From the UHGV virus genome UHGV-0391345: 41,856 nt of DNA. One strand, given 5' to 3'. Position 1 is the first letter of the stretch; each line of letters starts with the position of its first letter. This stretch comes from a virus. Positions 22,184 to 41,856 of this stretch are shown in pieces. A model generated the notes under the pieces. That model was not told the DNA's origin and did not search any database. It worked only from the letters and a program-made list of their open reading frames with translations. The position numbers were made by a program, and so were the translations under genes.

Positions 22184-23272
22184 TCACATGATGAACTTTT
22201 CAAAGTGTTTATTGATTTTTTTATTTTGCCGGACAGATTCCAGGTCAATCACATTTCTGTATACAGTTTTCATGATATTGTCACTGGCCCATCCTCCCCG
22301 CTGCAATATATATTGGTCTGGTACACCTATGGCGTGCATAATGGATGCAGCATAATGCCGGAGGTCGTGAAAGCGGAAATGCGGTACATCAATCTTTTTA
22401 AGCACCCGCCCAAATCTATGTGTAATATAATCCGGGTTCATGTCAACTAATTTCCCTTTTTTACCCGATATCCGGTCAATTACAAATGCTGGCATTTCTA
22501 CATCCCGTGTACTATCATCCGTCTTTGGCTGTTTGATATACCATTGATTGTCTGGCCCCTTGACCATATTGTCTCTTACATGGATAATATGACCATCTAC
22601 GTTTTTATCAGTAAGGGCGCTTATCTCTCCTCGCCGGAGTGGGCCAAATGCAGCCAGTAATACGGCTATCTCTAAATCTGTACCTTTGATAGCGTCTAAC
22701 AGCTTTTTGATATCATTGTCATTGGGGCAGTATAAATCGGGGCGTTTTTTCTGCGGAAGCTTTACCTTTAAGGTTAAATCCGGCGCAAACATTTCCAAGG
22801 ATGCGGATAACAGGCCATAGGCATTTCTAACTGTCTTTGGAGACAGTTGTTTCCCTGCCAAATCACTTACCCATATCTGTACAGATGGATTAGATAGTTC
22901 TGAGAGCCGTTTACGCCCAAATAAGCCGTCAAAATATTGCTTTTGCATACCAATATACCCTCTAAGCGTAGAAGGGCTTAAAACGCCTTTTTTGACGCTC
23001 AAATAACGTTCGATAGCTTGGTTTACTGTTATATCTTCGTCCTCATCATCTTCCGATTCATTGTATCGCTCTATGGGCTTGTCTTTCATGTCTAATTTCC
23101 ATCTGGTAGCCATTTCTTTTGCTTCCTTGCGTGATGGGGCAACAAAGCTTTTGTAATGCCGCTTACCTTTATCATCTGTATACAGATACACTTGCACTCG
23201 GACATTTCCAGACGGAAGTACTCCTTTTTTTCTTTTCGGGGCTTTTATAGTCATTTTTCTTTCCTCCTTCAA
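22184..23272 (-). CDS. tyrosine integrase
   Basis: 362 aa. Catalytic region FHDLRHYAASIMHAIGVP...YRNV contains the H, R, H and Y boxes. N-terminal core-binding domain present. Confidence 0.85.
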   Translation of the reverse strand: MKEERKMTIKAPKRKKGVLPSGNVRVQVYLYTDDKGKRHYKSFVAPSRKEAKEMATRWKLDMKDKPIERYNESEDDEDEDITVNQAIERYLSVKKGVLSPSTLRGYIGMQKQYFDGLFGRKRLSELSNPSVQIWVSDLAGKQLSPKTVRNAYGLLSASLEMFAPDLTLKVKLPQKKRPDLYCPNDNDIKKLLDAIKGTDLEIAVLLAAFGPLRRGEISALTDKNVDGHIIHVRDNMVKGPDNQWYIKQPKTDDSTRDVEMPAFVIDRISGKKGKLVDMNPDYITHRFGRVLKKIDVPHFRFHDLRHYAASIMHAIGVPDQYILQRGGWASDNIMKTVYRNVIDLESVRQNKKINKHFEKFIM

Positions 23273-24383: not shown

Positions 24384-25412
24384 TCATATTTTTTTTCGAT
24401 ATATTTCTACGTTTCCGTTTGGAGTATTTTTTCCTATTCTTTGCACAATCAGGTGAAGTCCGTTTAGCCTAATTTGAATCCAATAGTCTTGAATAGATAA
24501 ATTTGCTTTTCCTATATTCCCATCAGCAAGAAAATAAATGGAACCAAATACCTTATAAACGTATAAAGTAGAGCCATTATAAATATGTTTTTCTGGTTGT
24601 TCTCTAAAATGTAATATTGCTGGATATTTTGAAATTCTCCCAGTTTTCGTATAAGGAATACATTCAACATATGTATTTGCTATACTGTCTTTTTCCATAG
24701 GAATAGGATAAAAGAAATCTATATTTTCAGTACATATATATAATGATTCATCAAAATGTGTATAAGAGTACGATTCCTCTATAATAGAATTGATGTAATT
24801 AATAGCAGATAAAGCTATATACTGGTTATTTTTATTTAATATAAACCATGCTATTCCATTAGTGTGATTAAGTTCCATTACCCATTTCCATTCAAAGGGA
24901 ATTTCTGTGAACTGATACATATCAAAAATTTTAAAAGAGTTATGTAAATTCAAATATTCTTGATTTTCTTGCTCTCTTTCTTTTAAAACAATAGCCCGTT
25001 GTTCTTCTTTTGCTTTTTCTTCTGATGTTGTAAAATGTATTCCAGCATCTCTGTATTCTTCTTCCTTTTCTACAGCAGCATTATAAATAGCTTTATTATT
25101 AACGTACGCTTCCCTAGCATGTTTTCTCAAAATGGAATCCATACCGTACTCAACCCCATTAATTTCTATAATATTACGAAAAACGGGCAATTTATAGATA
25201 TCTTCAGGGTTATCAAGGTCATATTTTTTTCCATTTATAGTATAATAGCGAGGTAATGAAGATATTTGTGAAAGAATAATAGTCCCATTATTTTGGGGAT
25301 AATTTTTACTACTGATATATGGGGTTATAGGGGGGATATTATGCATATCGCTTTTCACCTCCTTAGTATTTCTAAGTTTGAATTCGTTTAATAACGTATC
25401 AAAGACATTCAT
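24384..25412 (-). CDS. AT-rich 342-aa protein of unknown function cotranscribed with the cI-like repressor (superinfection-exclusion/defence candidate by context)
   Basis: ATGA overlap with the upstream 72-aa gene. GC content is markedly lower than that of its neighbours. No recognisable catalytic motif. Confidence 0.5.
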   Translation of the reverse strand: MNVFDTLLNEFKLRNTKEVKSDMHNIPPITPYISSKNYPQNNGTIILSQISSLPRYYTINGKKYDLDNPEDIYKLPVFRNIIEINGVEYGMDSILRKHAREAYVNNKAIYNAAVEKEEEYRDAGIHFTTSEEKAKEEQRAIVLKEREQENQEYLNLHNSFKIFDMYQFTEIPFEWKWVMELNHTNGIAWFILNKNNQYIALSAINYINSIIEESYSYTHFDESLYICTENIDFFYPIPMEKDSIANTYVECIPYTKTGRISKYPAILHFREQPEKHIYNGSTLYVYKVFGSIYFLADGNIGKANLSIQDYWIQIRLNGLHLIVQRIGKNTPNGNVEIYRKKI

Positions 25413-25627
25413 CCATGTGCCCTCGATTCAATATCTTGTACATCATCTTTTTCAAAATCATTTCCTTCTAAGTGCCTCATAACATGCCAGAATCTTTGTC
25501 TTTGAGATTCCGTGGTTGCATTTTTATCTAAAAATATAGTAACGGTTCCATCCTCATTAGGCGTTACGGCTTCATGTATTTTTCCAGATGGAAAGCTAAT
25601 CAATTGGACGTTGTAGTCAATCGACAT
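25409..25627 (-). CDS. 72-aa hypothetical protein, middle gene of the repressor operon
   Basis: Overlaps both neighbouring genes. Confidence 0.45.
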   Translation of the reverse strand: MSIDYNVQLISFPSGKIHEAVTPNEDGTVTIFLDKNATTESQRQRFWHVMRHLEGNDFEKDDVQDIESRAHG

Positions 25628-25997
25628 TGCCTCGTTCCTTTCTTTTCAAAGCTAAAAGCATATCATGCGTAGTTTTCAAATCATCTGCGGTTGCATCTCT
25701 GGCAGCATCGAATAGCAGACGCAGTTCTTTATTTTCGAAAATGTCTTGTGCTATGGCCGCAGTTTCTGGATTGATATAGTATCTGTCAGCTTCTGCCTTT
25801 TCGTTTCCGGGCATTAAATCATTGACCGACACTCCAAAATAGTCAGCTATTTGTTGGAGTTTTTTTATTGTCGGACTTGTGCCTCTGGTCTTAAATTTAC
25901 CAATATACCCCCTTCCAAATCCCAATTCATTTTCTAAGGCCGTAATCGCAATTTCACGTTGTTTGCAAAGGTCAGAAATTATATCATATGTTGTCAT
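25617..25997 (-). CDS. cI-like XRE-family HTH repressor
   Basis: HTH TSPTIKKLQQIADYFGVSVNDL. GGAGG RBS. Divergent from a cro-like gene. Confidence 0.7.
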   Translation of the reverse strand: MTTYDIISDLCKQREIAITALENELGFGRGYIGKFKTRGTSPTIKKLQQIADYFGVSVNDLMPGNEKAEADRYYINPETAAIAQDIFENKELRLLFDAARDATADDLKTTHDMLLALKRKERGNVD

Positions 25998-26019: not shown

Positions 26020-26035
26020 GTAGAAAAAAGTCTAC
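26020..26035. promoter_or_regulatory. operator O1 GTAGAAAAAAGTCTAC
   Basis: Inverted repeat GTAGA-N6-TCTAC. Confidence 0.5.
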
Positions 26036-26044
26036 AAAAACTAT

Positions 26045-26072
26045 TGACAACATAGAATATAGTCTGTATAAT
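26045..26072 (+). promoter_or_regulatory. rightward consensus promoter TTGACA-16-TATAAT
   Basis: The -35 element is at 26045-26050 and the -10 at 26067-26072. Confidence 0.55.
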
Positions 26073-26085
26073 ACAAATATGCGAA

Positions 26086-26101
26086 GTAGAAAAAATTCTA
26101 C
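26086..26101. promoter_or_regulatory. operator O2 GTAGAAAAAATTCTAC
   Basis: Perfect palindrome GTAGAA-AAAA-TTCTAC. Confidence 0.55.
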
Positions 26102-26152
26102 TAAATATAAAATACAGATTTTGATGTTGTCTATGATTTTGCTGGTAACTTG

Positions 26153-26182
26153 ATTATAGAATAAAATCTACATCATGTCAAT
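26153..26182 (-). promoter_or_regulatory. leftward consensus promoter TTGACA-17-TATAAT (minus strand), face-to-face with the rightward promoter
   Basis: Read on the minus strand, the -35 element is at 26177-26182 and the -10 at 26153-26158. Confidence 0.55.
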
Positions 26183-26189
26183 ATATAAG

Positions 26190-26208
26190 GTAGAATTTTT
26201 TCTAAAAG
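26190..26208. promoter_or_regulatory. operator O3-like GTAGAATTTTTTCTAAAAG overlapping the cro RBS
   Basis: Matches the half-site consensus GTAGAA...TCTA. Confidence 0.4.
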
Positions 26209-26223: not shown

Positions 26224-26409
26224 TTGCTGATTTACGATAGGATTAAAGCAATATGTGAAGAAAAGGGTATTAGTGTTCGACAAGTAGAAACTACTGCTGG
26301 ACTTAAAAACGGTGCAATTAGCAAATGGAATGATTCAAGTCCAACAGTAAAGAGCCTTAAAGCGGTTGCAGATGTTTTAAAAGTAAAGGTTGATAAGCTT
26401 ATTTCTTAG
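26224..26409 (+). CDS. cro-like XRE HTH protein
   Basis: 61 aa. HTH ISVRQVETTAGLKNGAISKWN. AGGAGG RBS. Confidence 0.7.
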   Translation: MLIYDRIKAICEEKGISVRQVETTAGLKNGAISKWNDSSPTVKSLKAVADVLKVKVDKLIS

Positions 26410-26425
26410 AGGAGGAGGTGAAGCG

Positions 26426-28653: not shown

Positions 28654-29355
28654 ATGAAAAATCTTGAACTATATGAGCAGGTCCGTTCCGTCCCGGATAG
28701 CGCCAAGAAAACCATTAAGGGAGGACGTACTAGTGGTATGACCGATATTAACCCCATGTGGCGCATAAAAGTCCTTACTGAGCAGTTTGGCCCATGTGGG
28801 ATAGGATGGTACTACATCCCAACGCGGAAGTGGCTGGAAACATCAGGGAATGAGATAGCGGCTTTTGTGGATATCGAATTATACATAAAGGTTGACGGGG
28901 AATGGTCTAAACCAATTCCCGGAAACGGCGGCAGCATGTTTGCATCAAAAGAGAAATCCGGTATATATGTTTCGGACGAATGCTATAAAATGGCAACCAC
29001 AGATGCTATATCGGTAGCGTGTAAGCAGCTTGGAATTGGTGCAGATGTGTACTGGGATTCTGACAGGACTAAATACAACAAAGAACAAATTTTAGAATCA
29101 AAGAATGAAAAGAGTATTACAAAGGAAAAGAAGCTAAACGAGGATCAGGTAAACGATTTGATAGCAGAGTGTGAGAGAACTGGTAAACATTGGAGGTCCA
29201 TATGCTCTATTTATGCTGTAGACAAATTCAGTGATATGGTTGAATCGCAGTATATAGATTGTATTGCGAGGTTTAAGAATACACCAGATAAACCTTCTAA
29301 TGAAAACACTGCACCTCCAGATGAAATGCAGGAGAGCGGACTTCCGTGGAACTAG
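28654..29355 (+). CDS. Rad52/Sak-type single-strand annealing protein
   Basis: LTEQFGPCGIGW, AAFVDIELYIKVDGEWSKPIPGNGGS and KMATTDAISVACKQLGIGADVY line up with the conserved Rad52 N-terminal-domain blocks. Confidence 0.55.
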   Translation: MKNLELYEQVRSVPDSAKKTIKGGRTSGMTDINPMWRIKVLTEQFGPCGIGWYYIPTRKWLETSGNEIAAFVDIELYIKVDGEWSKPIPGNGGSMFASKEKSGIYVSDECYKMATTDAISVACKQLGIGADVYWDSDRTKYNKEQILESKNEKSITKEKKLNEDQVNDLIAECERTGKHWRSICSIYAVDKFSDMVESQYIDCIARFKNTPDKPSNENTAPPDEMQESGLPWN

Positions 29356-29365
29356 AGGTGAATAT

Positions 29366-29992
29366 ATGCATGAGTCAGCAAATATAACGGCATACAAACT
29401 GGTTCCAGAGGGGACATATTTACAGATTTTTATTCCTGGGAAAAATCTTATGGATCCGATCATCGAAAAGCGTATGAATAGATGTAGCGTATGGCTTGAT
29501 GATGGCAGACATATAAGCGCAGACCAGCGCAGGAAGATTTACGCCACAGTCAATGACATCTCCGCCTATTCCGGGAACGTGCCGGAGGTAGAGAAAGAAT
29601 GGCTTAAGTATTTACATATCAACCGGACCGGATGCGGATATTTTTCACTGTCTGATTGCTCTATGGATACTGCCAGGGAATTTATCAATACCATGTTGGA
29701 TTATTCGCTGGAGCAGGGAATACCGTTGTTGGATTTCGCTCTTAACCGTACCGATGATATAGGACATTACCTGTATGCGTGTTTAAAGCTTCGTAAGTGT
29801 GCTATATGCGGTCGAGATGGAGAGATACACCATGTAGATACTATCGGCATGGGTAATGACCGGAGGAAGGTTGATGATTCGGAGTACCGGAAAATATGCT
29901 TATGCCGGCAGCACCATACAGAAGCGCATAGCATTGGTATGACAGCGTTTGAGGACAGATATAAGGTGTACGGAATCAAGTTTGATAACTGA
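29366..29992 (+). CDS. HNH-like Cys/His motif protein
   Basis: C-terminal CAICGRDGEIHHVD...CLCRQHHTEAH. Confidence 0.4.
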   Translation: MHESANITAYKLVPEGTYLQIFIPGKNLMDPIIEKRMNRCSVWLDDGRHISADQRRKIYATVNDISAYSGNVPEVEKEWLKYLHINRTGCGYFSLSDCSMDTAREFINTMLDYSLEQGIPLLDFALNRTDDIGHYLYACLKLRKCAICGRDGEIHHVDTIGMGNDRRKVDDSEYRKICLCRQHHTEAHSIGMTAFEDRYKVYGIKFDN

Positions 29993-30009
29993 TATCAGCA
30001 GTATTGAAT
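29987..30009. repeat. intergenic motif copy 1: AACTGATATCAGCAGTATTGAAT
   Basis: Consensus (T)AAACTGATAWTCAGYAGTATTARCA. The palindromic core CTGATATCAG includes the upstream stop codon. Confidence 0.5.
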
Positions 30010-30022
30010 TGGGAGGAAGAAA

Positions 30023-30178
30023 ATGATTAAAGAATATATCAGCACCCCACAGGCATTAGCATTGGCTGTCATGGTTTTTACTTTAGGGTTAAAGACACCA
30101 GTTAGGGACGAGACAGCATTAAATGTGATTAAAATACTGTGTGTTATAAGTATAGTTGTTCTGTGGGCATTGATGTAA
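30023..30178 (+). CDS. 51-aa membrane peptide
   Basis: Strong RBS GGGAGGAAGAAA. Not in the ORF track. Confidence 0.3.
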   Translation: MIKEYISTPQALALAVMVFTLGLKTPVRDETALNVIKILCVISIVVLWALM

Positions 30179-30332
30179 TTGATATTAGCATCCCTATCGG
30201 TATCAGATCCCGCAAGGGATGATACATACAGCGGTAAATATAGTTGGTCAGATTGCATATGTCACGAATACTTTCTGACGCTGGGCCGGGACCTATCAAA
30301 CCTCCTTTACCCGGCCCGAAAGGAGGGATTAT

Positions 30333-30716
30333 TTGAAGAATAAGCGAACTGTTAGTGAAGATGTTCAAGCAAGGGTATATAATGCACTCCTTGTAGGGAA
30401 AGAGAATGCATTGAACCGGGATGAATTAGTATCCAAGACAGGAGAAAAGGACAGAGATGTAAGAACCGCGATAGAGATGTTAAGGCATGATAAAGTGATT
30501 CTTTCCTTGACAACAGGAAAAGGTTACTATGTACCCCGTGACGATGCACAGGGACGGCAAGAAGCCTATAAATGGATGGAAAGCCAGAATAGCCGGATAG
30601 AGAGCATAAAGGCGGCAGAGCGTGGCGCACAGCTATTTGTAGGCCGAAATAAGAAGAACAAGAGAAAGAATACCGAAATCCCTGGACAACTGAGTATGTT
30701 TGGTACTGGATTATGA
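30333..30716 (+). CDS. winged-helix DNA-binding protein (replication-module)
   Basis: TTG start 8 nt after AAAGGAGGG. Confidence 0.4.
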   Translation: MKNKRTVSEDVQARVYNALLVGKENALNRDELVSKTGEKDRDVRTAIEMLRHDKVILSLTTGKGYYVPRDDAQGRQEAYKWMESQNSRIESIKAAERGAQLFVGRNKKNKRKNTEIPGQLSMFGTGL

Positions 30717-31372
30717 GAGATAGTGTTGTATTTTATCGCAGCTTCTGGGAAGCCATTAAGCAATTGCCGGAAAAAGAAAGATTGGAATCTCTTACAGCAA
30801 TCTTAGAATATGGACTTGATGAAATAGAGCCTAAATCAGCAGGTGTTGCATCAGCAATGTTTTTAATGGCAAAACCACAAATTGATGCGAATAATCGTAG
30901 ATACCAAAACGGAACCAAGGGTGGTAGGCCAGCGACCAAAACAGAACCAAACAATAACCTAGAATCCAATTATAATAAACCAAGTGATAACCAAACCATA
31001 ACCAAAGCAAAACCTAAGGAAAAGGATAATGTAAAGGAAAAGGATAATGTAAATGATAATAATAAAAAAACATTTACTCCACCTTCGGTGTCGGATGTGT
31101 CCGATTATTGCAATTTGAATGGATATGGCATTGACCCAGAGAGTTTTGTTGATTTTTATGCATCAAAGGGATGGATGGTTGGAAAAAACAAAATGAAGGA
31201 CTGGAAAGCTTCGGTAAGGACCTGGGTGAGAAGCCAGCGGCAGGAATTGACCGCCAAAGGCAGTAAAAACCAGTTCCACAATTTTGACCAACGAGAAACT
31301 GATTACGATGCATTGATGCTAAAACAGGTACAGGACTGGGTAGGGGAGGGGACAGATGAAGGAAGCACATAG
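30713..31372 (+). CDS. DnaD-like / replisome-organiser-like replication protein
   Basis: C-terminal motif FVDFYASKGWMVGKNKMKDWKASVRTW. The low-complexity linker carries an 18-bp tandem duplication. Confidence 0.45.
   Translation: MRDSVVFYRSFWEAIKQLPEKERLESLTAILEYGLDEIEPKSAGVASAMFLMAKPQIDANNRRYQNGTKGGRPATKTEPNNNLESNYNKPSDNQTITKAKPKEKDNVKEKDNVNDNNKKTFTPPSVSDVSDYCNLNGYGIDPESFVDFYASKGWMVGKNKMKDWKASVRTWVRSQRQELTAKGSKNQFHNFDQRETDYDALMLKQVQDWVGEGTDEGST
31016..31051 (+). repeat. perfect 18-bp tandem duplication AAGGAAAAGGATAATGTA x2 (in-frame KEKDNV x2)
   Basis: Copies at 31016-31033 and 31034-31051. Confidence 0.6.
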
Positions 31373-31610
31373 GCGTATACTTGACTATATTAAGTCCTAC
31401 ATGGTGATCCATAACTATCCTCCCACTACCAGGGAGATTGGGGATGGAGTTGGATATACATCTAGTTCTACCATATGGGGATATTTACGTGACATGAGAG
31501 ATAAGGGACTGATTGATTATACGGATGAATGCCCAAGGACGATTACAATACCTGGATGTCATTACGTTTTTGAGAAGGGAGATGTGCTTGAATGCCGGAA
31601 AATAAAATAA
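31356..31610 (+). CDS. LexA N-terminal DNA-binding-domain-only protein (no peptidase domain)
   Basis: ILDYIKSYMVIHNYPPTTREIGDGVGYTSSSTIWGYLRDMRDKGLI matches the LexA winged-helix domain. Only 84 aa. Confidence 0.55.
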   Translation: MKEAHRRILDYIKSYMVIHNYPPTTREIGDGVGYTSSSTIWGYLRDMRDKGLIDYTDECPRTITIPGCHYVFEKGDVLECRKIK

Positions 31611-31777
31611 AAAATCAATATAGCGAAAATTCAGAACGCCAAAGAATGGCAGCAATAAAAGATATGGAAAAACATCCATCGCCCATGACACAAGCATATC
31701 TACGTCCAGCCTATGATAGGACGGAAATATGCCCGGATCATTCCAGGCGTCCAAGTAATCAAAATGCCCATTTCTGA
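31592..31777 (+). CDS. hypothetical protein
   Basis: Open reading frame only. Confidence 0.25.
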   Translation: MPENKIKNQYSENSERQRMAAIKDMEKHPSPMTQAYLRPAYDRTEICPDHSRRPSNQNAHF

Positions 31778-31793
31778 AAGGAGAAGAAACTGA

Positions 31794-31955
31794 ATGAAAA
31801 AATATCACTTTTATATGGGGACAGGATTTGCCGGGGCAACCCATGAAGAAGAATTTGAATTTGATGATGATGCATCGCAGGAAGAAGTTGAAGATTCGTA
31901 TGAGGATTGGAAAAATAGTCATTTAGATTGTTCTTGGTGGGAGGTAAAAGAATAA
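31794..31955 (+). CDS. 53-aa acidic hypothetical protein
   Basis: AAAGGAG RBS. Confidence 0.3.
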   Translation: MKKYHFYMGTGFAGATHEEEFEFDDDASQEEVEDSYEDWKNSHLDCSWWEVKE

Positions 31956-31980
31956 ACACAGATTTAGAGGAGGAAGCAGA

Positions 31981-32286
31981 ATGGGAAGACTAATTGATTC
32001 GGATGATGTAAAAAAACTGCTTATTGCAAGATATGAGGGAGAAGAGTACATAATCGAGGATATAAGAAAAATTCCAACCGCAAAAACAGAGAATAAGTGG
32101 GTTCCGGTTGAAAGGGACCTTCCTCCGTGTGGAGAGATAGTACACGTTACGGTTAGACGTGGATATGTTGAAGTTGGATATTATGATGATGTTAGAGAAG
32201 AATGGTGGAAGGTTGATGATGAAGGACTTCTTGATGTGATTGCATGGCATCCAGCACCGGATCCATATAAGGAGGCAGAGGGATGA
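31981..32286 (+). CDS. hypothetical protein
   Basis: GGAGG RBS. Confidence 0.4.
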   Translation: MGRLIDSDDVKKLLIARYEGEEYIIEDIRKIPTAKTENKWVPVERDLPPCGEIVHVTVRRGYVEVGYYDDVREEWWKVDDEGLLDVIAWHPAPDPYKEAEG

Positions 32287-32645
32287 AGGGATATAGACCA
32301 AAACTCGTTGAAGGACGGGTAAACAGCACTGGATGGCCGATAGATGGGTATGTAGTAGCGTTAACGTTATGGGATTATGACAACTACGAGATGTATCATC
32401 TGTTCAGCTGGCCGGATGAATCGGACGATGCAATGATGCGAACTATGTACCAGACAGAAGAGGAAGCCGGATTTTTGCTGGCTGATAGTTTGGAAGAGTT
32501 TGAACAGCAGTGGAAGGCTGGAGAGTGGGAGGCTCAAGGATCATTCTACATTCCGCTCGATAAAGTGGAGGTTATTAAGGTAATCTGGGAAGAGGAAAAA
32601 GAACATGATTATGGGGAGCGAGGGAAGGAAAAGTATGACAATTGA
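32283..32645 (+). CDS. hypothetical protein
   Basis: ATGA overlap with its neighbour. Confidence 0.4.
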   Translation: MKGYRPKLVEGRVNSTGWPIDGYVVALTLWDYDNYEMYHLFSWPDESDDAMMRTMYQTEEEAGFLLADSLEEFEQQWKAGEWEAQGSFYIPLDKVEVIKVIWEEEKEHDYGERGKEKYDN

Positions 32646-32907
32646 CAAAAGAGAAGCCATAGGCATATTGCAGGAACACATTAATACATACCACCACCAA
32701 ATTACGGATGGTGGATGGGAACAGATGGTGCGTATGGGAATTGCCAGAAACACGATACAAGACAAGTTGGCATTCCGGGCAGACGCAGAAAAGCAGATAC
32801 AGGCATATAAGATGGCAATCAAAGCACTGGAGAGCGGGGAGGCAGAGGAGTTTGCGAACCGGTGTTATCTGGATGGAATATGCTCGTTTCAGTCGCCAAT
32901 TTGTTAA
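32635..32907 (+). CDS. hypothetical protein
   Basis: ATGA overlap with its neighbour. Confidence 0.35.
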   Translation: MTIDKREAIGILQEHINTYHHQITDGGWEQMVRMGIARNTIQDKLAFRADAEKQIQAYKMAIKALESGEAEEFANRCYLDGICSFQSPIC

Positions 32908-33063
32908 CCAAAATCGCTATTTAAGCAATTAAAGAAATAGAAAGTAAAACAGTCCTGGCCGGGTAAAGTGATCACTTTCTGAATGGTAAAATTACAGGAT
33001 TTACCAGTCAATACATTAGCGCTGGTGAGCGATAATAGTAATTATTCATTTTAGGAGGTACCT

Positions 33064-33789
33064 ATGAAAGTATGTTGGTTTAGCACCGGAGTATCGTCTT
33101 TTGTGGCGTGTTACTTGGCTAAGGATATTGATAAAATTATTTACACTCATGTCGAAAATCAACATCCTGATAGTCTGAGATTTTTGAAGGATTGCGAGGC
33201 GATTTTGGGAAGAAAGATTGAGCCTATACAATCAGATAAATACAAAGATGTGGATGATGTAATTGAAAATACCAGATGCATAAACACAGCTTTTGGAGCA
33301 CCCTGCACTAAATGGTTGAAAAAACAGGTACGCAGAGACTGGGAGGCAGCGAATCCAGACCATCATACATATGTGTGGGGTTATGATGTGAATGAGATGC
33401 ACAGAGCAGACGCAGTTGTTAAAGCGCTTTCTGACTACGACCATGAGTTCCCGTTGATTGAGAATGGATTGACAAAAGCAGAGTGCCACGGGATAGCCGA
33501 TAAACTGGGGCTGAAACGCCCAGTAATGTATGACATGGGGTATCCAAACAACAACTGCATTGGTTGCGTAAAAGGCGGCATGGGATACTGGAATAAGATT
33601 CGGATTGATTTCCCGGAGGTATTTGAACGCCGGGCTAGGCAGGAGAGGGAGATAGGGCATAGTTGTATCGGGGGAGTATATCTGGACGAGTTAGACCCGA
33701 ACCGTGGAAGGATGGACCTGGAGGTTATGGAAGACTGTACGATAGCCTGCCAATTACTTAGCCAGGGGATAGGCTGGATAAATGACTGA
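33064..33789 (+). CDS. PAPS-reductase-family (PP-loop ATP-pyrophosphatase fold) protein with a degenerate PP-loop
   Basis: N-terminal CWFSTGVSSFVA corresponds to the SGGxDS PP-loop position. Size and C-terminal Cys pairs fit the family. Confidence 0.5.
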   Translation: MKVCWFSTGVSSFVACYLAKDIDKIIYTHVENQHPDSLRFLKDCEAILGRKIEPIQSDKYKDVDDVIENTRCINTAFGAPCTKWLKKQVRRDWEAANPDHHTYVWGYDVNEMHRADAVVKALSDYDHEFPLIENGLTKAECHGIADKLGLKRPVMYDMGYPNNNCIGCVKGGMGYWNKIRIDFPEVFERRARQEREIGHSCIGGVYLDELDPNRGRMDLEVMEDCTIACQLLSQGIGWIND

Positions 33790-33844
33790 AAGGAAATATT
33801 GTATTAAACGATGAAAATTAGGATTTGAGAAAGGACTGTAGCGA

Positions 33845-34087
33845 ATGGAAATTGAAAAGGCAATAGAAATTGTTAGCAGAAAAACAACAATCCCTAATGA
33901 GGGTGAAAGTTTTTCTGATATCGAGGAGGCATATAAAATCGCTATAGTATCTATGCGAAAGGATATTTACAAGAGATGTGCGTATGATAGGGGATTTTAT
34001 CTCTGCCCTAATTGTGGTGAATCAACTGCGGAAGACTGTGTAAATACAGGGCGTTGCTCTACATGTGGTCAGGCGATAATCCATTAA
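33845..34087 (+). CDS. small Cys-rich protein (CPNCG...CSTCG zinc ribbon)
   Basis: The repeat motif follows the stop. Confidence 0.4.
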   Translation: MEIEKAIEIVSRKTTIPNEGESFSDIEEAYKIAIVSMRKDIYKRCAYDRGFYLCPNCGESTAEDCVNTGRCSTCGQAIIH

Positions 34088-34110
34088 ACTGATAATCAGC
34101 AGTATTAACA
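34086..34110. repeat. intergenic motif copy 2: AAACTGATAATCAGCAGTATTAACA
   Basis: Same motif, directly after the stop of 33845..34087. Confidence 0.5.
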
Positions 34111-34112
34111 TT

Positions 34113-34304
34113 ATGGAGGAACCAGCTGTGGCATATGTAAGATGCGGGAATCATGATTGCGAAAATCATAATAAGAAAATGGGATGTAAGTTATCCGTGG
34201 TATTAATATCATCACATTCGGAAAACGATATACCATGTGGAGAAAATGCATTGCTTGACAATTTGACATACTGCTTAAATTATTCTAAAAAGCAGGAAGA
34301 TTAA
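34113..34304 (+). CDS. small Cys-rich protein
   Basis: CGNHDCENH...C...PCG...C. Confidence 0.35.
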   Translation: MEEPAVAYVRCGNHDCENHNKKMGCKLSVVLISSHSENDIPCGENALLDNLTYCLNYSKKQED

Positions 34305-34327
34305 AATTTTACAGAGGAGTAAATAAC

Positions 34328-34558
34328 ATGAAAGTAAAACAGACGCGTGAGATGGTGAAACGAATAGAGAGCCTAATGTCTGATCTTGAAAAAGTAGATA
34401 AATCAAGAGATATTGACGATAGCATTGAGGAAAGCATTGAATGCTATTCAGGCGTAAAATCATTTTCAGGGTTGTTGATTGACACTGTGGCTTGTTTGGG
34501 TGATTATAGATCACTTCTAAATCGAGCCATTGAAGAAGCAGATATCCCATTAATTTAA
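34328..34558 (+). CDS. hypothetical protein
   Basis: GGAG RBS. Confidence 0.35.
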   Translation: MKVKQTREMVKRIESLMSDLEKVDKSRDIDDSIEESIECYSGVKSFSGLLIDTVACLGDYRSLLNRAIEEADIPLI

Positions 34559-34575
34559 AATTTTGAGGTATTGGT

Positions 34576-34746
34576 ATGATTAAAAACAAAGAGCTGTTGG
34601 GGATTATTGAAACAAAGAAACGGGAAAAAAGCTGCGAAAATTGTAGGCACTGCAATCTACAAGCATTCCATAGGGGGCAGTGGTATTGCAATAAGATAAG
34701 TGTTTTTGATGTTCCAGTGGAAACAAAAAAATGTTTTGAAGATTAG
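34576..34746 (+). CDS. 56-aa Cys-rich protein (CENCRHC...C...C)
   Basis: Not in the ORF track. Confidence 0.3.
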   Translation: MIKNKELLGIIETKKREKSCENCRHCNLQAFHRGQWYCNKISVFDVPVETKKCFED

Positions 34747-34955
34747 TATCTGGAGGATAAAGAATGATACCAGAAGACAGAAGAAAGATATATATGTAAA
34801 TATTGCATATATTGTGAATGTGAGAAAGAAACAGAAGGAATGGTAATTTGTAATGTTGATATAAGAGAACAGGTGGATGTTAATCACCCAAGTTGCTACT
34901 GCTTTGATTATGATGATACTTTTAAGAGATATTAAGTTTTCCAGAGGTAGAAAAT

Positions 34956-35171
34956 ATGAAATTTATAAAAAATGGTGGTTTGTATGAAACAGATAAAAGT
35001 AATGAATGTAAAATTTCAAAAATCACAGAAGATGAAAAGATAATGACAATATCGGTTGTTGTGCCTAAGGATTTTAACGGAACTTATTGCCAAAAATGTC
35101 CGATATGGTGTGACAGTATATCTTGTTCTGTAATTGGAATTTGTCCGTTAAATGATAATCAGCAGTATTAG
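34956..35171 (+). CDS. small Cys-rich protein
   Basis: CQKCPIWCDSISCSVIGICP. The repeat motif overlaps the stop. Confidence 0.35.
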   Translation: MKFIKNGGLYETDKSNECKISKITEDEKIMTISVVVPKDFNGTYCQKCPIWCDSISCSVIGICPLNDNQQY

Positions 35172-35173
35172 CA
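35148..35173. repeat. motif copy 3: TAAATGATAATCAGCAGTATTAGCA
   Basis: Overlaps the last codons and stop of 34956..35171. Confidence 0.5.
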
Positions 35174-35195
35174 TTTGATTGAGAAGGAGGAAAAT

Positions 35196-35468
35196 TTGAA
35201 AGAATTTGAGTATGACTGGCAGCGTCCTTTAAGGAGATTGGAAGTCGGAGACAGCGCCATTATAAAAGTCAGGCATAACAGTTTGGAAAAAGAGTCACAA
35301 AGGAAAAAGTACGGAGCAATATCAGATGGAGTTTATAAGGCGCAAGTAATAGCACCGTATGAATTAAAATGTGAGGATTATCCGATTTTAAGCGGAAAAT
35401 ATTGTTATTGGTATGGTAATAAGTTTGGTTGTTCTGGGCTTATTTATGCTGACGAGTTAGGTCGCTAA
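35196..35468 (+). CDS. hypothetical protein
   Basis: TTG start after AAGGAGG. Confidence 0.35.
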   Translation: MKEFEYDWQRPLRRLEVGDSAIIKVRHNSLEKESQRKKYGAISDGVYKAQVIAPYELKCEDYPILSGKYCYWYGNKFGCSGLIYADELGR

Positions 35469-35518
35469 ACTGATATTGATCAAAAATTGTGTATACATAC
35501 ACAGAAAGGGGCAGAGGT

Positions 35519-35686
35519 ATGGCAAGACCAAAGAAAGAGACCAATAAGAAGTATATCCGGCAGAACATAAGCATGGACCCGGAACAACTAAAACGGGTAA
35601 CCGCCTACTGCCAGAAAGAGGACAGGGCTATAAGTTGGGTGATCCGGCAGGCCCTGGACAGGTATCTTAATGATAACGTTGCGTAA
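35519..35686 (+). CDS. ribbon-helix-helix (CopG/Arc-like) DNA-binding protein
   Basis: KRVTAYCQKEDRAISWVIRQALDRYL. Confidence 0.45.
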   Translation: MARPKKETNKKYIRQNISMDPEQLKRVTAYCQKEDRAISWVIRQALDRYLNDNVA

Positions 35687-35747
35687 CAATGTGTATCGTT
35701 ACACAACAAAACTGATATTTCCGGGAGTAACGAAGGAAGGAATAAAG

Positions 35748-35960
35748 ATGAAAAAATATCGAGTTATGGTACCGATAGTTGCAGCATGTTATGTGGAAGT
35801 CGAGGCGGAAAACGAGAAAGAAGCTATCGCTTGTGCATTGAATAGCGAAGAACTGTCTCTTGAAAATGTAGAAGAATGGGAGGGGCTTGAGGCCATTGTT
35901 ACGGGTAATGTAGTTTATACATACAACCATACTGCCTGGGCTGAGGAGTTGGAGAATTAA
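35748..35960 (+). CDS. hypothetical acidic protein
   Basis: GGAAGG RBS. Confidence 0.35.
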   Translation: MKKYRVMVPIVAACYVEVEAENEKEAIACALNSEELSLENVEEWEGLEAIVTGNVVYTYNHTAWAEELEN

Positions 35961-35993
35961 GATTTTAAATTATAATCCAGAAAGGGAATGATC

Positions 35994-36224
35994 ATGACAA
36001 AAACAGAGGCTATGAATATATTAGCGGTATTTGATAGACAGGTAGTAGCTAAATCTGATGGTGCACATCAAACATTGGAAGGGCTTGAGGCCTGCGAGAT
36101 GGGTATTAAAGCGCTGAAAAAGTGGATTATTATGGAAGCAGATTTAAAACACTACTTAAGAGACAACGAAGAAAATGGAGTGGTTTATGTACCGAAATTT
36201 ATCATAGAGAAACTGCTAAACTGA
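35994..36224 (+). CDS. hypothetical protein
   Basis: The repeat motif overlaps the stop. Confidence 0.35.
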   Translation: MTKTEAMNILAVFDRQVVAKSDGAHQTLEGLEACEMGIKALKKWIIMEADLKHYLRDNEENGVVYVPKFIIEKLLN

Positions 36225-36241
36225 TATCAGTAGTATTAGCA
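36217..36241. repeat. motif copy 4: TAAACTGATATCAGTAGTATTAGCA
   Basis: Overlaps the stop of 35994..36224. Partial copies occur at 35466-35489 and 35708-35721. Confidence 0.5.
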
Positions 36242-36341
36242 GTTTCAGATTAAAGAAAAATAGATAAAGGAACACATATATGCACAGAATGAAAACTGAG
36301 CGATGGTCACCCGCCAAGATGATTCCACCGCTCTCGTAAAT

Positions 36342-36373
36342 ACGTCTGAGTATATTATATCTCACTCAGACGT
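36342..36373. repeat. perfect 10-bp inverted repeat ACGTCTGAGT-N12-ACTCAGACGT upstream of the second recombinase (candidate recombination/operator site)
   Basis: No T-run follows, so it is not an intrinsic terminator. Confidence 0.4.
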
Positions 36374-36404
36374 GAAAATCAATACGAATGAGGAGGATAT
36401 AATT

Positions 36405-37451
36405 ATGAGTACACAGACAATTAAAGCTGAAATAATTAACAATGTACTGGTAGCCATGTCCTTATATATTGTGGAGCAGCAGACTCTTAACATTCTGCAA
36501 AATGTAATGCAGCAGGAATTGGTAAGGGTAAATATGGAGGAAATAACTACTCTTCCGGCAGAAAGAAAGGATGATATAAGCCAGCGGAATCAGTACATAA
36601 TACAATTATTCCTGATTAAAAAACGCGATTTAGCAAGAGGAACCAAACAAAACTATCTGAATGCCATACGAAGATTGTTGACAGAAATAAACACAAAATC
36701 ATTGGACCAGATGGATACCACAGATATTGATTGGTATTTATCCCGATACGAAATTAGGAATGTGTCCAGCGGAGGAAAGAAAAATCAGCCCAGTACCTAC
36801 AACAATGAACGCCGTTTTCTATCAGCATTCTTTACATGGATGCGCCTTGAAAAGCTTATTACAGATAATCCGGTGGAACCAATACCTGCCAAGAAAGTAC
36901 CAATTAAACCAATTGATTATTACAGCCCAGAAGAATCTGCAAGGTTAAGGGACGCGTGCAAAAATATTCGCGAGAGGGCCTTACTGGAAGTGCTTCGAAG
37001 TACTGGGGCCAGGATAGGAGAAATTGCGGAAACAACTCTAGACCAGATAGACATGAGAACCGGCGATATATGGATACAGGGAGAGAAAGGCGGAAGATAC
37101 CGCACAATCTATCTGGATGATGATGCGCGACATTATTATGGACTGTATTTGGACAGCAGAAAAGATGATTGCCTGTATATGTTCCCACGCTCCAGAAAAC
37201 CGTATGGGAAAATGACTACTTGCGGATTCCGAGCAATATTGAAAACCATAAAAAAGAGGGCCGGATTAACATGCCGGGTATATCCGCATAAGTCACGCAA
37301 GACACTGGGAATGAATCTGAAGAACAGAGGCGTTGATATTGGGACTATACAGGAGATTATGGGACACGCAGACCCAGGAGTTACGGCACGGTATTATGCA
37401 CAGTCTAATCCCCGCACCCTTCGGTCGATAAGGGAAATGGTTAATGTGTAG
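36405..37451 (+). CDS. second tyrosine recombinase (XerC/D-phage integrase family)
   Basis: RSTGARIGEI (R box), HKSRKT (H-x-x-R), GHADPGVTARYY (H box and Tyr). GAGGAGG RBS. Confidence 0.75.
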   Translation: MSTQTIKAEIINNVLVAMSLYIVEQQTLNILQNVMQQELVRVNMEEITTLPAERKDDISQRNQYIIQLFLIKKRDLARGTKQNYLNAIRRLLTEINTKSLDQMDTTDIDWYLSRYEIRNVSSGGKKNQPSTYNNERRFLSAFFTWMRLEKLITDNPVEPIPAKKVPIKPIDYYSPEESARLRDACKNIRERALLEVLRSTGARIGEIAETTLDQIDMRTGDIWIQGEKGGRYRTIYLDDDARHYYGLYLDSRKDDCLYMFPRSRKPYGKMTTCGFRAILKTIKKRAGLTCRVYPHKSRKTLGMNLKNRGVDIGTIQEIMGHADPGVTARYYAQSNPRTLRSIREMVNV

Positions 37452-37456
37452 GAAGG

Positions 37457-37765
37457 ATGGATATGAGGACCAGGAACAAGAACTATAACGACTATGGAAT
37501 TACAGAAGATGAAGCCAAGCGCATAAAAGAATACTGCCAGACCGCCAGCGTAGAAGATAAGCTTACATTGTTCCAGTGTGCCATATCCTCCGCCCCTGGC
37601 CTGGAAGTAGAAATATATGAGAGCCTTGTAGGTAACATCGGATATGATAAACTCAGTAAGAGGAAGAACATACCAATTAAACGGGATGATTTTTATGGGT
37701 ACCAAAGAAAGACTCTGGATGAATACAGGCGGTTAATGACATTATTTGGGAGGTGGAAAGGATAG
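37457..37765 (+). CDS. hypothetical protein downstream of the recombinase
   Basis: Open reading frame only. Confidence 0.35.
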   Translation: MDMRTRNKNYNDYGITEDEAKRIKEYCQTASVEDKLTLFQCAISSAPGLEVEIYESLVGNIGYDKLSKRKNIPIKRDDFYGYQRKTLDEYRRLMTLFGRWKG

Positions 37766-38912: not shown

Positions 38913-39335
38913 GTGGGGCTTACACCGAAGCAGAAAGCGTTTGCGGATTATTATATTGAGTGTGGAAATGCGGCAGAGGCTGCGAGAAAGGCTGGTTATA
39001 GCTTACGGACAGCAGACGCAATAGGACGTGAAAACTTACGGAAGCCTACGGTTTCTGCATATATCTCCGAGCGACAGAAACAGATTGATGATTGCCGCAT
39101 AGCTGATGCTGCTGAAATACTGCAATACCTTACGTCTGTAATGCGCGGAGAAGTAAAAGACCAATTCGGACTTGATGCTCCGCTGGCAGAGAGAACTAAA
39201 GCGGCGGTGGAACTGGCAAAACGTAAGATAGATACAGACAAAAAGCAGGAGGGCGGCGGGATTACCATTGTCAACAACATACCAAGACCAGACAACAATA
39301 AATCTGACCGATGTAATCGCTCCGTCCTTCTATGA
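38913..39335 (+). CDS. terminase small subunit
   Basis: N-terminal KQKAFADYYIECGNAAEAARKAGYS HTH typical of terminase small subunits. Precedes the large subunit gene. Confidence 0.6.
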   Translation: MGLTPKQKAFADYYIECGNAAEAARKAGYSLRTADAIGRENLRKPTVSAYISERQKQIDDCRIADAAEILQYLTSVMRGEVKDQFGLDAPLAERTKAAVELAKRKIDTDKKQEGGGITIVNNIPRPDNNKSDRCNRSVLL

Positions 39336-40527
39336 TGTTCATTGGGATATCCTTGAAGGTAAACATACATATTATGACCTGTACGGTGGGCGAGGTTCTG
39401 CGAAGTCCTCTTTTATATCAGCGGAGATTGTGCTAGGTATGATGAATGACCCAGAGGCCAATGCTGTCATATTTCGTAAGTACGCCGTAACCATTGGAGA
39501 ATCAGTATTTGAGCAGATACAGTGGGCCATAGATGCGTTAGGAGTAACAGATTTATGGGAATCCCGTACAAGCCCATACAGATTCGTTTATAAGCCAACA
39601 GGACAAAAGATAATATTTCGTGGACTTGATAAGGCAAAGAAAACAAAGTCTATAAAGGCCAGTAAAGGATATTTTAAATACCTATGGTTTGAAGAACTAG
39701 ACGAATTTGCAGGACCAGAGGAAATACGAACTGTTGAACAGTCAGTATTGCGTGGCGGTAGCAAGTTTGTTGTATTCAAATCCTTTAACCCGCCCATCAG
39801 CCAAAGTAACTGGGCTAATCAGTATGTAAATACGCCGGATGATAGCGCATACAGGCATAAAAGCGATTACCGTTCTGTACCGGCAGAATGGTTAGGGGAA
39901 ATGTTTGTTGAGCGCGCCGAACATCTTAAAGCTACCAATGAGCGGGCATATAATCATGAGTATTTAGGTCTACCGGTTGGACTTGGTACAAATATATTTG
40001 ACATGTTGGATGTGCGAACAATCACAGACGAAGAAATCAAGGGATACCAAAGCATTTACCAGGGGCAGGACTGGGGCTGGTTCCCGGACCCCAAAGCATT
40101 TATCCGGGCTGCATACATACCGAACAAGGAAATGGTTGTGCTGCTTGATGAAATGGGAGGCTGCAAAATCCGTAACAGTAAGATGGCGGAGGATATACAG
40201 ACGGCTGGGTACGATGATTATACAATCTATTGCGGAGTGGATGAAGAAGAAAGCATTATAGACTTCCGTGACGCTGGTTTACCGGCCCGCAGAGCCATTG
40301 TGACGCCAGGAAGTAGGAAATATACCTTTGAGTGGTTGCAGTGCCGTACAATCGTTATAGACCCGGCCCGCACGCCGCGAGCATATAAAGAAATCATAGA
40401 ATACGAGCATGAGGTAGACAGCAACGGAGAAGTGATAGCGGATTATCCAGATGGAAACGACCACTGGATTGACGCTCTTCGTTATGCCACAAGCCCGTTG
40501 TCAATGAGAAGGGGGAACAGTGCATGA
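39268..40527 (+). CDS. terminase large subunit
   Basis: Walker A LYGGRGSAKS near the N-terminus. 419 aa, with a C-terminal nuclease region. TTG start, uncertain. Confidence 0.85.
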   Translation: MSTTYQDQTTINLTDVIAPSFYDVHWDILEGKHTYYDLYGGRGSAKSSFISAEIVLGMMNDPEANAVIFRKYAVTIGESVFEQIQWAIDALGVTDLWESRTSPYRFVYKPTGQKIIFRGLDKAKKTKSIKASKGYFKYLWFEELDEFAGPEEIRTVEQSVLRGGSKFVVFKSFNPPISQSNWANQYVNTPDDSAYRHKSDYRSVPAEWLGEMFVERAEHLKATNERAYNHEYLGLPVGLGTNIFDMLDVRTITDEEIKGYQSIYQGQDWGWFPDPKAFIRAAYIPNKEMVVLLDEMGGCKIRNSKMAEDIQTAGYDDYTIYCGVDEEESIIDFRDAGLPARRAIVTPGSRKYTFEWLQCRTIVIDPARTPRAYKEIIEYEHEVDSNGEVIADYPDGNDHWIDALRYATSPLSMRRGNSA

Positions 40528-40737: not shown

Positions 40738-41856
40738 ATGGGACTAATAACATGGGCTAAAAAGGTGATAGGAATGATATTCAAGCGACAAGCAGAAGAA
40801 GATTTTAATGTTGAGTCAGTAGTTTCCCCGGAGATGGAAAGCAAGATTGCAGAGTGCGCCAATATCTACCGGGGTACTCCCTATTGGGTGAATGCTGACG
40901 ATAACGTTAAGACAATCAATTTCGCAAAGGCTATATGCTCCGAGACGGCCCGGCTTGCCACACTGGCAATCGGAATACAGATTGATGGGAGTTCGCGGGC
41001 TGCATGGCTCCAGGAGCAGATTGATAAGATATATTTCCAGATTAGGCACTGGGTAGAATATGGTATGGCCTACGGTACAATCATACTTAAGCCCAATGGT
41101 AAAGGACTGGACATATTCACACCGATGGATTTTATTATTACAGACTGCGATAACGAAGGTATCTATGGGATTGTATTTAAGGATAGCTACAGCGAAAATG
41201 ATAAGTATTATACTCGGTTTGAGTATCATCGGTTTGTTGAAGTCAAGGATGGAGATAACACTTATTACCCATATTACATATCCAATAGAGCTTATGTGTC
41301 TCATTCTGCAAAAAGTGTGGGGGACCCAATAGCATTAAATAGGACTAAGTGGTCCGACTTGCTTCCAGAGACTCCACCTATACTTAAAGCAAACAATGAT
41401 AAAATAGATGGTCCCATGTTTGGAATACTCCGCACTCCACAGGCTAATAATTTGGATATTTCATCACCTTTTGGATTACCGATGTATGCCGAGGCCATAG
41501 AAGAATTAAAGGACCTTGATATAGCATATAGCCGAAACGTGGGTGAAATATTTGACAGTGAGAAAATCATATTGGCAGATGACCAGCTGATGTTTGGAAG
41601 CGGTACAAACATTAAAAGCCGTTATGCTGGCATGAGCAATGAAAAGCTTCCTCATTATGTTAAAAATGTATTTGGAAATGGAACAGAGTCTTTCTATCAG
41701 GAGATTGTTCCATCGTTGAATACTGATATCAGAATTACCGGAATAAACAACCTACTCTCATTTGTGGGATTTAAGTGTGGATATTCCAATGGGTATTTTG
41801 TGCTTGATGAAAAAACAGGAATGGTCACAGCCACACAGGTAGAGGCTGACGACAGG
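40738..41856 (+). CDS. portal protein, N-terminal 373 aa (runs off the window end)
   Basis: Follows the terminase large subunit gene. No stop before the window end. The frame matches the fragment at 1..315. Confidence 0.7.
   Translation, partial: MGLITWAKKVIGMIFKRQAEEDFNVESVVSPEMESKIAECANIYRGTPYWVNADDNVKTINFAKAICSETARLATLAIGIQIDGSSRAAWLQEQIDKIYFQIRHWVEYGMAYGTIILKPNGKGLDIFTPMDFIITDCDNEGIYGIVFKDSYSENDKYYTRFEYHRFVEVKDGDNTYYPYYISNRAYVSHSAKSVGDPIALNRTKWSDLLPETPPILKANNDKIDGPMFGILRTPQANNLDISSPFGLPMYAEAIEELKDLDIAYSRNVGEIFDSEKIILADDQLMFGSGTNIKSRYAGMSNEKLPHYVKNVFGNGTESFYQEIVPSLNTDIRITGINNLLSFVGFKCGYSNGYFVLDEKTGMVTATQVEADDR

Follow-up and report, generated by a model that had tools for sequence, protein, structure and literature searches.

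A short repeated intercistronic element at cassette ends and homology breakpoints in phage genome UHGV-0391345

The early region of the virus genome UHGV-0391345 (41,856 bp, 40.7% G+C; the whole of this stretch is referred to as the window) contains four near-identical copies of a 28-30 bp element with the consensus wAAACTGATA(A)TCAGYAGTATTARnATTT, all on the + strand and all located at junctions between genes. Together with a set of partial copies, they coincide with the ends of single-gene cassettes and with the points at which homology to related phages stops or resumes. The evidence tips, if only slightly, toward reading the element as a portable intercistronic junction that would also act as a short-homology recombination linker and that carries neither promoter nor terminator. 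Phage genomes are mosaic, and the sequences at which their modules are exchanged have rarely been defined. Here, one specific 28-30 bp junction delimits single-gene cassettes in many Lachnospiraceae-type temperate phages and prophages, and thereby provides a concrete, testable substrate for the movement of accessory genes among gut phages. The moving genes include small Cys-rich proteins, ribbon-helix-helix (RHH) regulators, and toxin-antitoxin-like and Abi-like genes. The motif could also serve as a practical marker of accessory-gene arrays and cassette boundaries in metagenomes. The element is real, conserved and experimentally tractable, and its function is read here from sequence comparison.

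Copies of the element in the window

The original prediction placed a repeated element at the gene ends 29987, 34086, 35148 and 36217. Indeed, a search of both strands of the window for the exact sequence TGATA(W)TCAGYAGTATT gives four sites only, all of them on the + strand (29990, 34090, 35153 and 36222). A 25-mer consensus with up to three mismatches yields two matches, where 100 shuffles give an expectation of 0.00. The 8-mer AACTGATA is present as an exact match six times on the + strand, at five early-region gene ends and at 24910, and is absent from the - strand. All full copies lie within 29985-36243, and the structural genes contain none; a perfect CTGATATCAG at 41723-41732 falls within the portal gene, has no motif extension and is treated as a chance match. 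Weaker copies had been proposed at 35466 and 35708. Both prove to be genuine 5' halves for which relatives hold longer versions (related loci carry L numbers throughout): in L040 the RHH gene is followed by a full element, and L038 reads AAACTGATAAT from position 6040. Additional half or decayed copies, which the prediction had missed, are located at 30176-30194, 33817-33826, 34300-34309 and 35956-35965. The copies and the units they bound are as follows (ORF, open reading frame; UTR, untranslated region; SD, Shine-Dalgarno sequence):

29985..30010, + strand: full element, copy 1, with a 10-bp core and TATTGAATT as its 3' part
30176..30194, + strand: decayed copy TAATTGATATTAGCATCCC with an internal deletion, located at the stop of 30023-30178
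33817..33826, + strand: 3' half element ATTAGGATTT downstream of the PAPS-reductase-like gene
34085..34112, + strand: full element, copy 2, with an 11-bp core
34300-34309: further half or decayed copy
34552..34566, + strand: 3'-half-like junction TTTAAAATTTTGAGG before 34576-34746; right end of a 726-bp block
35148..35176, + strand: full element, copy 3, the AAATG variant
35466..35478, + strand: 5' half copy TAAACTGATATTG (TAAACTGATAT); left boundary of the RHH cassette
35708..35720, + strand: short form AAAACTGATATTT, a 5' half fused to TTT
35720..35962, + strand: complete mobile cassette consisting of a 5' UTR hairpin overlapping the SD, ORF 35749-35960, and ATTAAGATTT
35956..35965, + strand: 3' half element ATTAAGATTT; its TAA terminates 35749-35960
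36217..36243, + strand: full element, copy 4, with a 10-bp core and CAGTAG; last of the array

The predicted overlap with stop codons is confirmed, and the stops occur in three registers: as TAA just 5' of the element, as TGA within ACTGATA, and as TAG in TATTAG. Copies 1 and 4 contain the TGA of the HNHc_6 gene (29366-29992) and of 35988-36224, respectively, while the first bases of copy 2 form the TAA of 33845-34087. The gene 34956-35171 is translated through copy 3 as ...LNDNQQY and ends at the TAG of TATTAG (TATTAGCA). Past three of the full copies, a GGAGG-type ribosome-binding site (RBS) and a start codon follow within 14-30 nt; after copy 1, these are the RBS and ATG of 30023-30178. The copy at 36217 is followed instead by a weak SD and a 19-codon upstream ORF (uORF), with the Xer-like recombinase gene downstream. 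As claimed, the separated genes are mostly small and Cys-rich, with the addition of an RHH gene; the gene 5' of copy 1 differs and encodes a 208-aa HNHc_6 nuclease.

Several of the partial copies delimit units that vary between phages. The 3' half at 33817..33826 is the left end of the 726-bp cassette block, which is missing in L253, L251, L160 and L165, and L160 has a near-full element before the same gene as 34576-34746 of the window. The short form at 35708..35720 is at once the right boundary of the RHH cassette and the left boundary of cassette 35720-35962, and is seen again in L038, L254, L255, L267 and L271. At the junction equivalent to 30176..30194, L042 and L038 hold diverged longer versions.

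Conservation and cassette exchange in related phages

Copies outside the window were collected by pattern scans, by a profile built from the matches, and by fetching loci via neighbouring proteins. The motif search in related phages that had been proposed as a check reveals about 30 distinct copies with differing flanks in IMG/VR viral, metagenome and isolate-genome contigs. All real copies are co-oriented with the genes, abut or overlap the upstream stop codon, and lie 10-34 nt before a start codon. The conserved stretch extends 7-8 nt past the searched pattern, whereas chance matches in unrelated genomes show neither this 3' extension nor an RBS. In more than 20 unrelated upstream contexts, the element begins at one and the same sharp left edge, and it is nearly identical across phages whose common genes are just 45-70% identical. 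Lineage variants exist as well, namely AAAAACGATAATCGGTAGTATTAATATTT (L172 group), TAAACTGACAATCGGCTGATTTAATATTT (L183) and AAAACTGATAATCAGAAGTTTTAATATTT (L186).

The only named host among the related contigs is Enterocloster citroniae DSM 19261; the remaining relatives derive from metagenomes of human-gut type and from three NCBI assemblies. Carriers of the element include the DSM 19261 contig NZ_JBEPLZ010000052 and the strains of GCA_000233455.1, GCA_027662505.1 and GCA_040926685.1. The best reading is that the element is shared by a group of temperate phages of gut Lachnospiraceae. A host regulatory motif was considered and rejected: 185,579 species genomes yield 24 matches, of which 23 are chance-like (no 3' extension or RBS) and one lies on an Enterocloster citroniae prophage contig. 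The loose pattern TCAGYAGTATTARNATTT, scanned over IMG/VR, returns mostly chance matches and just five new real loci. The element sequence is absent from INPHARED GenBank phage records and from a full-text literature search, in agreement with the earlier statement that it had not been described.

Comparison of the window with L038, L042, L253, L254, L160, L165 and L251 locates homology breakpoints at 29985-30008, 30184-30196, 33826, 34552-34560, 35191, 35467, 35720 and 35962-35966, each of which coincides with a full copy or with a half, either 5' (AAACTGATAT) or 3' (ATTARnATTT). At copy 1, homology stops at 29988 with L038 and at 29985 with L042; the breakpoint at 35467 is with L038, and those at 35962-35966 involve L038, L042, L160 and L254. 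The near-isogenic L253 lacks the 726-bp block 33826-34552 and shows a hybrid junction of ATTAGAATTT joined to TGAGG, and deletions end at ATTT. In L160, block 34552-35191, itself bounded by elements, is present twice around a 1.1-kb insert, as would be expected of unequal exchange between element copies. Cassette 35720-35962 is not found at this place in L038. It reappears in L254 as part of a second array, whose junctions nearly all have the sequence ATTARnRTTT with a small hairpin and an SD behind it. The RHH gene lies between direct AAACTGATAT repeats in the window and has AAAACTGA-containing junctions on both sides in L049. Together, these comparisons define single-gene cassettes that are bounded by the element or its halves, and the view that the element punctuates a cassette-like array is borne out by this coincidence of cassette ends and breakpoints with its copies.

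The exchange of downstream partners can be followed at the level of individual genes. Each of five units of upstream gene plus element is found with two to four downstream partners that are unrelated to one another, and the switch occurs directly past ATTT; the gene upstream of copy 3, for example, is followed after the element by another gene in L160, L165 and L251. The variable R/n positions of the element go along with the downstream partner, which places the crossovers inside the element. A gene of roughly 55 codons that begins MKYTVHYESKPGMWE is present twice in L006 and once in L007, in three contexts. Its homology extends from AATTARnATTT and a CYGGRAGAACCGGAGG leader as far as the downstream full element; sequences are almost the same over the final 75 nt and differ by about 15-20% over the remainder, a pattern as expected for conversion tracts that would start at the element.

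The second array of L254 (14120-18790) is preceded by a truncated fragment of a terminase and by a PAPS_reduct gene of 378 aa, and contains a MazE-like gene and second copies of window cassettes 35720-35962 and 35988-36224.

Possible functions of the element

As a portable junction, the element would act through both of its parts. The 5' part (AAAC TGA TA(A)) would supply the last codon or two and the in-frame stop or stops for any upstream gene, with back-up stops as AAC TGA TAA in the 11-bp core and as TGA...TAG...TAR in the 10-bp core, and the 3' part (TATTARnATTT) would provide an A/T-rich leader running into the SD of the next gene. The same ends on many unrelated small genes would create about 30 bp of identity between any two copies, whether these lie in the same genome or in different phages that co-infect or are resident. 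At these sites, a cassette might then be inserted, deleted, duplicated or replaced through homologous or microhomology-mediated recombination while expression stays unbroken, and the enzymes would probably be the phage's own recombination functions or host RecA; the continuity of expression and the enzymes are what we infer. It is known that phage recombinases can use stretches of homology that are short and diverged (PMC3945230). A candidate phage recombination module (28654..29992, + strand), which consists of a 233-aa protein of the PHROG 'exonuclease' family and the HNHc_6 nuclease, directly precedes the first copy and could be the machinery for short-homology exchange. The identification of the 233-aa protein as a single-strand annealing protein was tried and dropped: Pfam, NCBIfam and PDB sequence searches are empty, and the PHROG family is its sole match.

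The linker reading is favoured in part because the element offers no promoter, terminator, stable fold or Rfam family as a competing cis function. A consensus scan of the copies predicts no sigma-70 promoter on the gene strand and no intrinsic terminator at any of them. For the -10-like hexamers TATTAA and TAACAT, recognized by inspection, the -35 would fall in non-conserved upstream coding sequence, and none of the -10/-35 registers of ECF-like, MerR-like or sporulation sigma type fits the element in a check by eye. A promoter for a single-subunit RNA polymerase was discarded, as the genome has no gene of the size of such a polymerase, and ARAGORN detects no tRNA or tmRNA gene in the window from which the element could derive. 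Resemblances noted by eye to the Fur box (TGATAAT), the dif XerD arm (ATGTTAA), the integration host factor consensus, the phiX174/pC194 nick site, the CRESS nonanucleotide (TAGTATTAC) and the 16S 530 loop are out of register or too short.

Several observations weigh against the linker. Breakpoints are also found at element-free junctions (31950, 32270, 32637 and 32911), and the element is therefore not required for mosaicism; moreover, gene boundaries are places where breakpoints would be expected in any case. The window has four copies of the 3' half alone where about 1.9 are expected, which is no statistical enrichment; the assignment of the recombination proteins relies solely on PHROG and Pfam family names, and the invariance of the core is partly circular because many copies were retrieved with patterns derived from the element. 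Finally, 28-30 near-invariant nucleotides with a sharp left edge are not explained by a passive linker on its own; this holds above all for the central 17 nt and suggests selection on an additional cis constraint. Such a constraint might be a dedicated recognition site at the invariant centre (the CTGATA(A)TCAG palindrome plus CAGTATTA) for a phage or host factor, e.g., a nuclease, recombinase or hairpin-binding protein, that directs breaks or strand exchange to gene junctions. We consider this quite unlikely; if true, it would make the array a genuine cassette-exchange system, integron-like or homing-like in function and mechanistically distinct, instead of a case of passive homology.

The element could also act at the level of RNA, which is unlikely. 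A small hairpin (CUGA...UCAG or ACUG...YAGU) with a conserved single-stranded tail in the polycistronic early transcript might be bound by a phage or host protein and control processing, stability or translation of the next cistron, comparable to T4 RegA/RegB targets or T7 RNase III sites. The strict common orientation and the placement of all copies shortly upstream of a start codon are in line with such a signal. In an alignment of 31 distinct copies, 93.5% of the cells of the 5-1-5 palindrome are paired, with UA in 28 copies, CG in two and UG in one at the pair 10-18; the Y polymorphism retains G-C or G-U in the alternative helix, a 1-nt change of central length would be tolerable in a loop, and many cassettes also have a wobble-compatible UCCGG-GAGAA-CCGGA hairpin over the SD. 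However, both CG rows belong to one lineage, and this single independent compensatory event is reached by 17 of 500 shuffles, while pairing in the alternative ACUG/YAGU helix is maintained solely by G-C and G-U. The stem comprises just 3-4 bp. Among the predicted folds of eight copies with flanks, seven are not more stable than shuffles (z -0.9 to +1.1); the exception, 36208-36246 (-17.5 kcal/mol, z -4.4), has flanks that extend the palindrome, and this extension is missing in L042. Rfam 15 gives no match at E<=1 over 29500-37000, and there is no candidate RNA-binding protein common to all motif-bearing phages. The pairing data are a hint of a symmetry or pairing constraint, without real evidence for structure, and the proposed RNA-processing or termination-control element finds no backing in these predictions.

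The other function proposed originally, an operator for a dimeric regulator (RHH, LexA DNA-binding domain (LexA-DBD) or tandem helix-turn-helix (HTH) protein), is not supported either. A protein bound at CTGAT(A)ATCAG could silence or time the accessory genes as a roadblock, similar to the stoperators of Cluster A mycobacteriophages, which are likewise short intergenic repeats that are oriented with transcription and often overlap stop codons (PMC9283540, PMC6550527). The perfect 5-0-5 or 5-1-5 palindrome and its symmetric T:A to C:G change in one lineage would suit this role, and the neighbour seen most often is a LexA-DBD winged-helix gene, in 21 of 36 motif-bearing loci. Nevertheless, we regard an operator as rather improbable. 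Stoperators match the early-promoter operator and bind the immunity repressor, whereas the CI/Cro operators at PR/PL of this phage (GTAGAAAAAAnTCTAC palindromes, about 26020-26204) are unrelated to the element, of which the PR/PL region has no copy; and stoperators are spread over early and late operons, whereas the four full copies are confined to the accessory array. The recognition helix of the LexA-DBD protein varies (SSSTIWGY / SPASINSN / STSTVATY) among phages with identical elements, and of 80 loci that encode a homologue, about 14 have the element or one of its variants and about 66 lack it. RHH homologues are present in 6 of the 36 motif-bearing loci and the tandem-HTH protein in fewer, and the palindromes that flank the RHH gene itself differ from the element. 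All three proteins were rejected as the binder on co-occurrence and recognition-helix variation. In addition, 10-bp and 11-bp palindromes coexist in one genome, a poor fit with one dimeric operator, and conservation runs asymmetrically 17 nt past the palindrome.

The element might also be a functionless fossil, i.e., a gene end (...DNQQY plus stop in one frame) with a generic A/T-rich junction that spread passively and is intact only where young. The readthrough of copy 3 into LNDNQQY points in this direction, as do the lack of enrichment of the 3' half and the abundance of decayed or internally deleted forms (30176, 35466, 35708, L042, L049, L254, L263-L271). The sharp left boundary in so many unrelated contexts and the near-identity of the element between diverged phages argue against a fossil, and independent lineage-specific variants retain the overall architecture, so that we find this explanation decidedly doubtful.

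An integron-like array, in which the Xer-like recombinase (36405-37451) would excise and insert cassettes at a site-specific recombination site, is highly improbable. Directly repeated sites do flank promoterless, co-oriented small cassettes that end in a partly palindromic sequence, as in integrons; the array has a tyrosine recombinase gene at its distal end, both in the window and in at least 12 related loci, and the consensus is readable as 10-7-10 with 8 of 10 symmetric positions. Integron attC sites span 57-141 bp and have paired R''/L'' and L'/R' boxes, and a tyrosine-recombinase core site consists of two inverted arms and a 6-8 bp spacer. The element, by comparison, is a 28-30 bp site with a 5-1-5 palindrome only. 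Its arms are not maintained across variants, and spacer and arm lengths and sequences are polymorphic among copies within the window; in the 10-7-10 reading, 73.8% of the cells are paired, the same as in shuffles, and covariation is lacking. No IntI-type integrase is found: the recombinase scores 63.3 bits against TIGR02249 (integron integrase), for which the cut-off is 265, and its best NCBIfam match, Xer-like, is likewise below its cut-off. Nor is the recombinase coupled to the motif. Only 2 of 80 recombinase-encoding loci, many of them at 95-97% identity, carry the full element, several others have the 14-nt short form AAAACTGATATTTT or no trace, and the motif-bearing L002/L009, L006, L052 and L186 have another gene at the recombinase position. 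The junctions are, moreover, imprecise and include internal deletions. The low IntI score, the co-occurrence and the missing covariation led to the rejection of an integron-like or Xer site.

The closest parallel to the favoured linker is provided by the promoter-early stem-loop (PeSL) motifs of T4-type phages, in which sigma-70 early promoters and stable stem-loop terminators form regulatory junctions that mediate modular shuffling, and recombination between nearby copies gives mini-circles (Arbiol et al. 2010, PMC2839356; Comeau et al. 2014, PMC4122927). Both are repeated conserved motifs concentrated in a hyperplastic region rich in small ORFans, both span the distance from the upstream stop codon to the SD or start of the next gene, in both cases indels and replacements between close relatives end in the motif, and both are read as substrates of homologous recombination that shuffle modules. 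In contrast to PeSLs, the element has no sigma-70 promoter, terminator or stable stem, is shorter and far more uniform in sequence, and resides in a temperate siphovirus-like Firmicutes phage instead of a T4-like myovirus. The boundary 'linker' sequences of lambdoid and dairy phages, which undergo relaxed recombination by Rad52-like recombinases (De Paepe et al. 2014, PMC3945230), are similar in that crossovers fall at gene boundaries between unrelated sequence and phage-encoded recombination functions lie nearby, the recombinase assignment in the window being weak. However, those homologies are usually pairwise and locus-specific, whereas here one sequence is used at many junctions in many phages. 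Conserved junction motifs that mediate modular shuffling are therefore known as such; what appears to be undescribed is this particular element, together with its host range and the absence from it of promoter and terminator content. The PeSL idea would thereby be extended from virulent T4-like phages of Proteobacteria to temperate gut phages of Firmicutes, with an element that is neither promoter nor terminator.

Genome context and neighbouring features

The window represents a complete, circularly permuted genome, as alignments with close relatives cross the window end into its start, and the phage looks temperate and siphovirus-like. The portal-gene ORF starts near 40739 and continues past the end of the window as far as 421. 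Three GTAGAAAAAAnTCTAC-type palindromes are located in the lysis-lysogeny switch (26020-26204) between the CI-like and Cro-like genes, a long + strand early region follows downstream of the divergent promoters, and the ribosome-binding sites of the phage are of the AGGAGG type. In the early gene order, the Xer-like recombinase is followed by the tandem-HTH protein and then the terminase.

To about 22 kb, + strand: structural genes, from the portal region
22184-23272, - strand: integrase
25617-25997, - strand: CI-like repressor
26044-26072 and 26181-26153: divergent promoter pair, perfect consensus TTGACA-17-TATAAT
26226-26410, + strand: Cro-like gene
28654-29355, + strand: 233-aa protein, PHROG 'exonuclease' family
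29366-29992, + strand: HNHc_6 nuclease, 208 aa
30713-31372, + strand: DUF6291 protein
31356-31610, + strand: LexA-DBD protein
33064-33789, + strand: PAPS-reductase-like protein, 241 aa
33845-36224, + strand: run of very small, mostly Cys-rich ORFs plus the RHH protein
36405-37451, + strand: Xer-like tyrosine recombinase

The PAPS-reductase-like protein is present with identical sequence in 442 blocks of the assembly collection. The phages that share it (L249-L258) differ in their integrases, replication modules, terminases and portals, which implies that the segment moves between backbones. In the close relatives L252 (15647-17738) and L258 (11934-14025), a NUMOD4/HNH_3 homing-endonuclease gene interrupts the large terminase gene and leaves it in parts of 152 aa and 259 aa; the counterpart in the window (39268-40527) is intact.

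Two kinds of putative leader structure accompany the array. A recurrent 5' UTR hairpin, UCCGG-GAGAA-CCGGA, is located at 35719-35741 of the window and also in L006, L008, L042, L047, L049 and L254; its 3' arm overlaps the SD (CCGGAGG), its variants are wobble-compatible (UCUGG, UUCGG, ...UCGGA), and, being carried by many cassettes, it may sequester the SD or couple translation. Ahead of the Xer-like recombinase gene, the region 36280-36404 encodes the conserved 19-codon uORF MHRMKTERWSPAKMIPPLS (MYEYNKRWTPAKMIPPLL in L255), each ending in a stop, and 3' of it follow a ACGTCTGAGT-N12-ACTCAGACGT hairpin, in which L255 has a compensatory T:A to C:G change, and the SD and ATG of the recombinase. 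This leader is kept in L263-L278 even where the upstream junction differs, and looks like leader-peptide or attenuation-type control. Directly 3' of the recombinase, relatives (L041, L043, L165, L183, L232) always have a DUF1492 / sigma-70-region-4-like gene, presumably a late regulator, whose position in the window (36405-37765 region) is taken by an unrelated 102-aa protein. The RHH gene, in turn, is flanked by TGTGTAT palindromes of its own, TTGTGTATACATACACA upstream (35488-35505) and GTAACAATGTGTATCGTTAC downstream (35688-35706), which are likely its operator and a terminator-like hairpin, respectively; L049 has equivalents of both.

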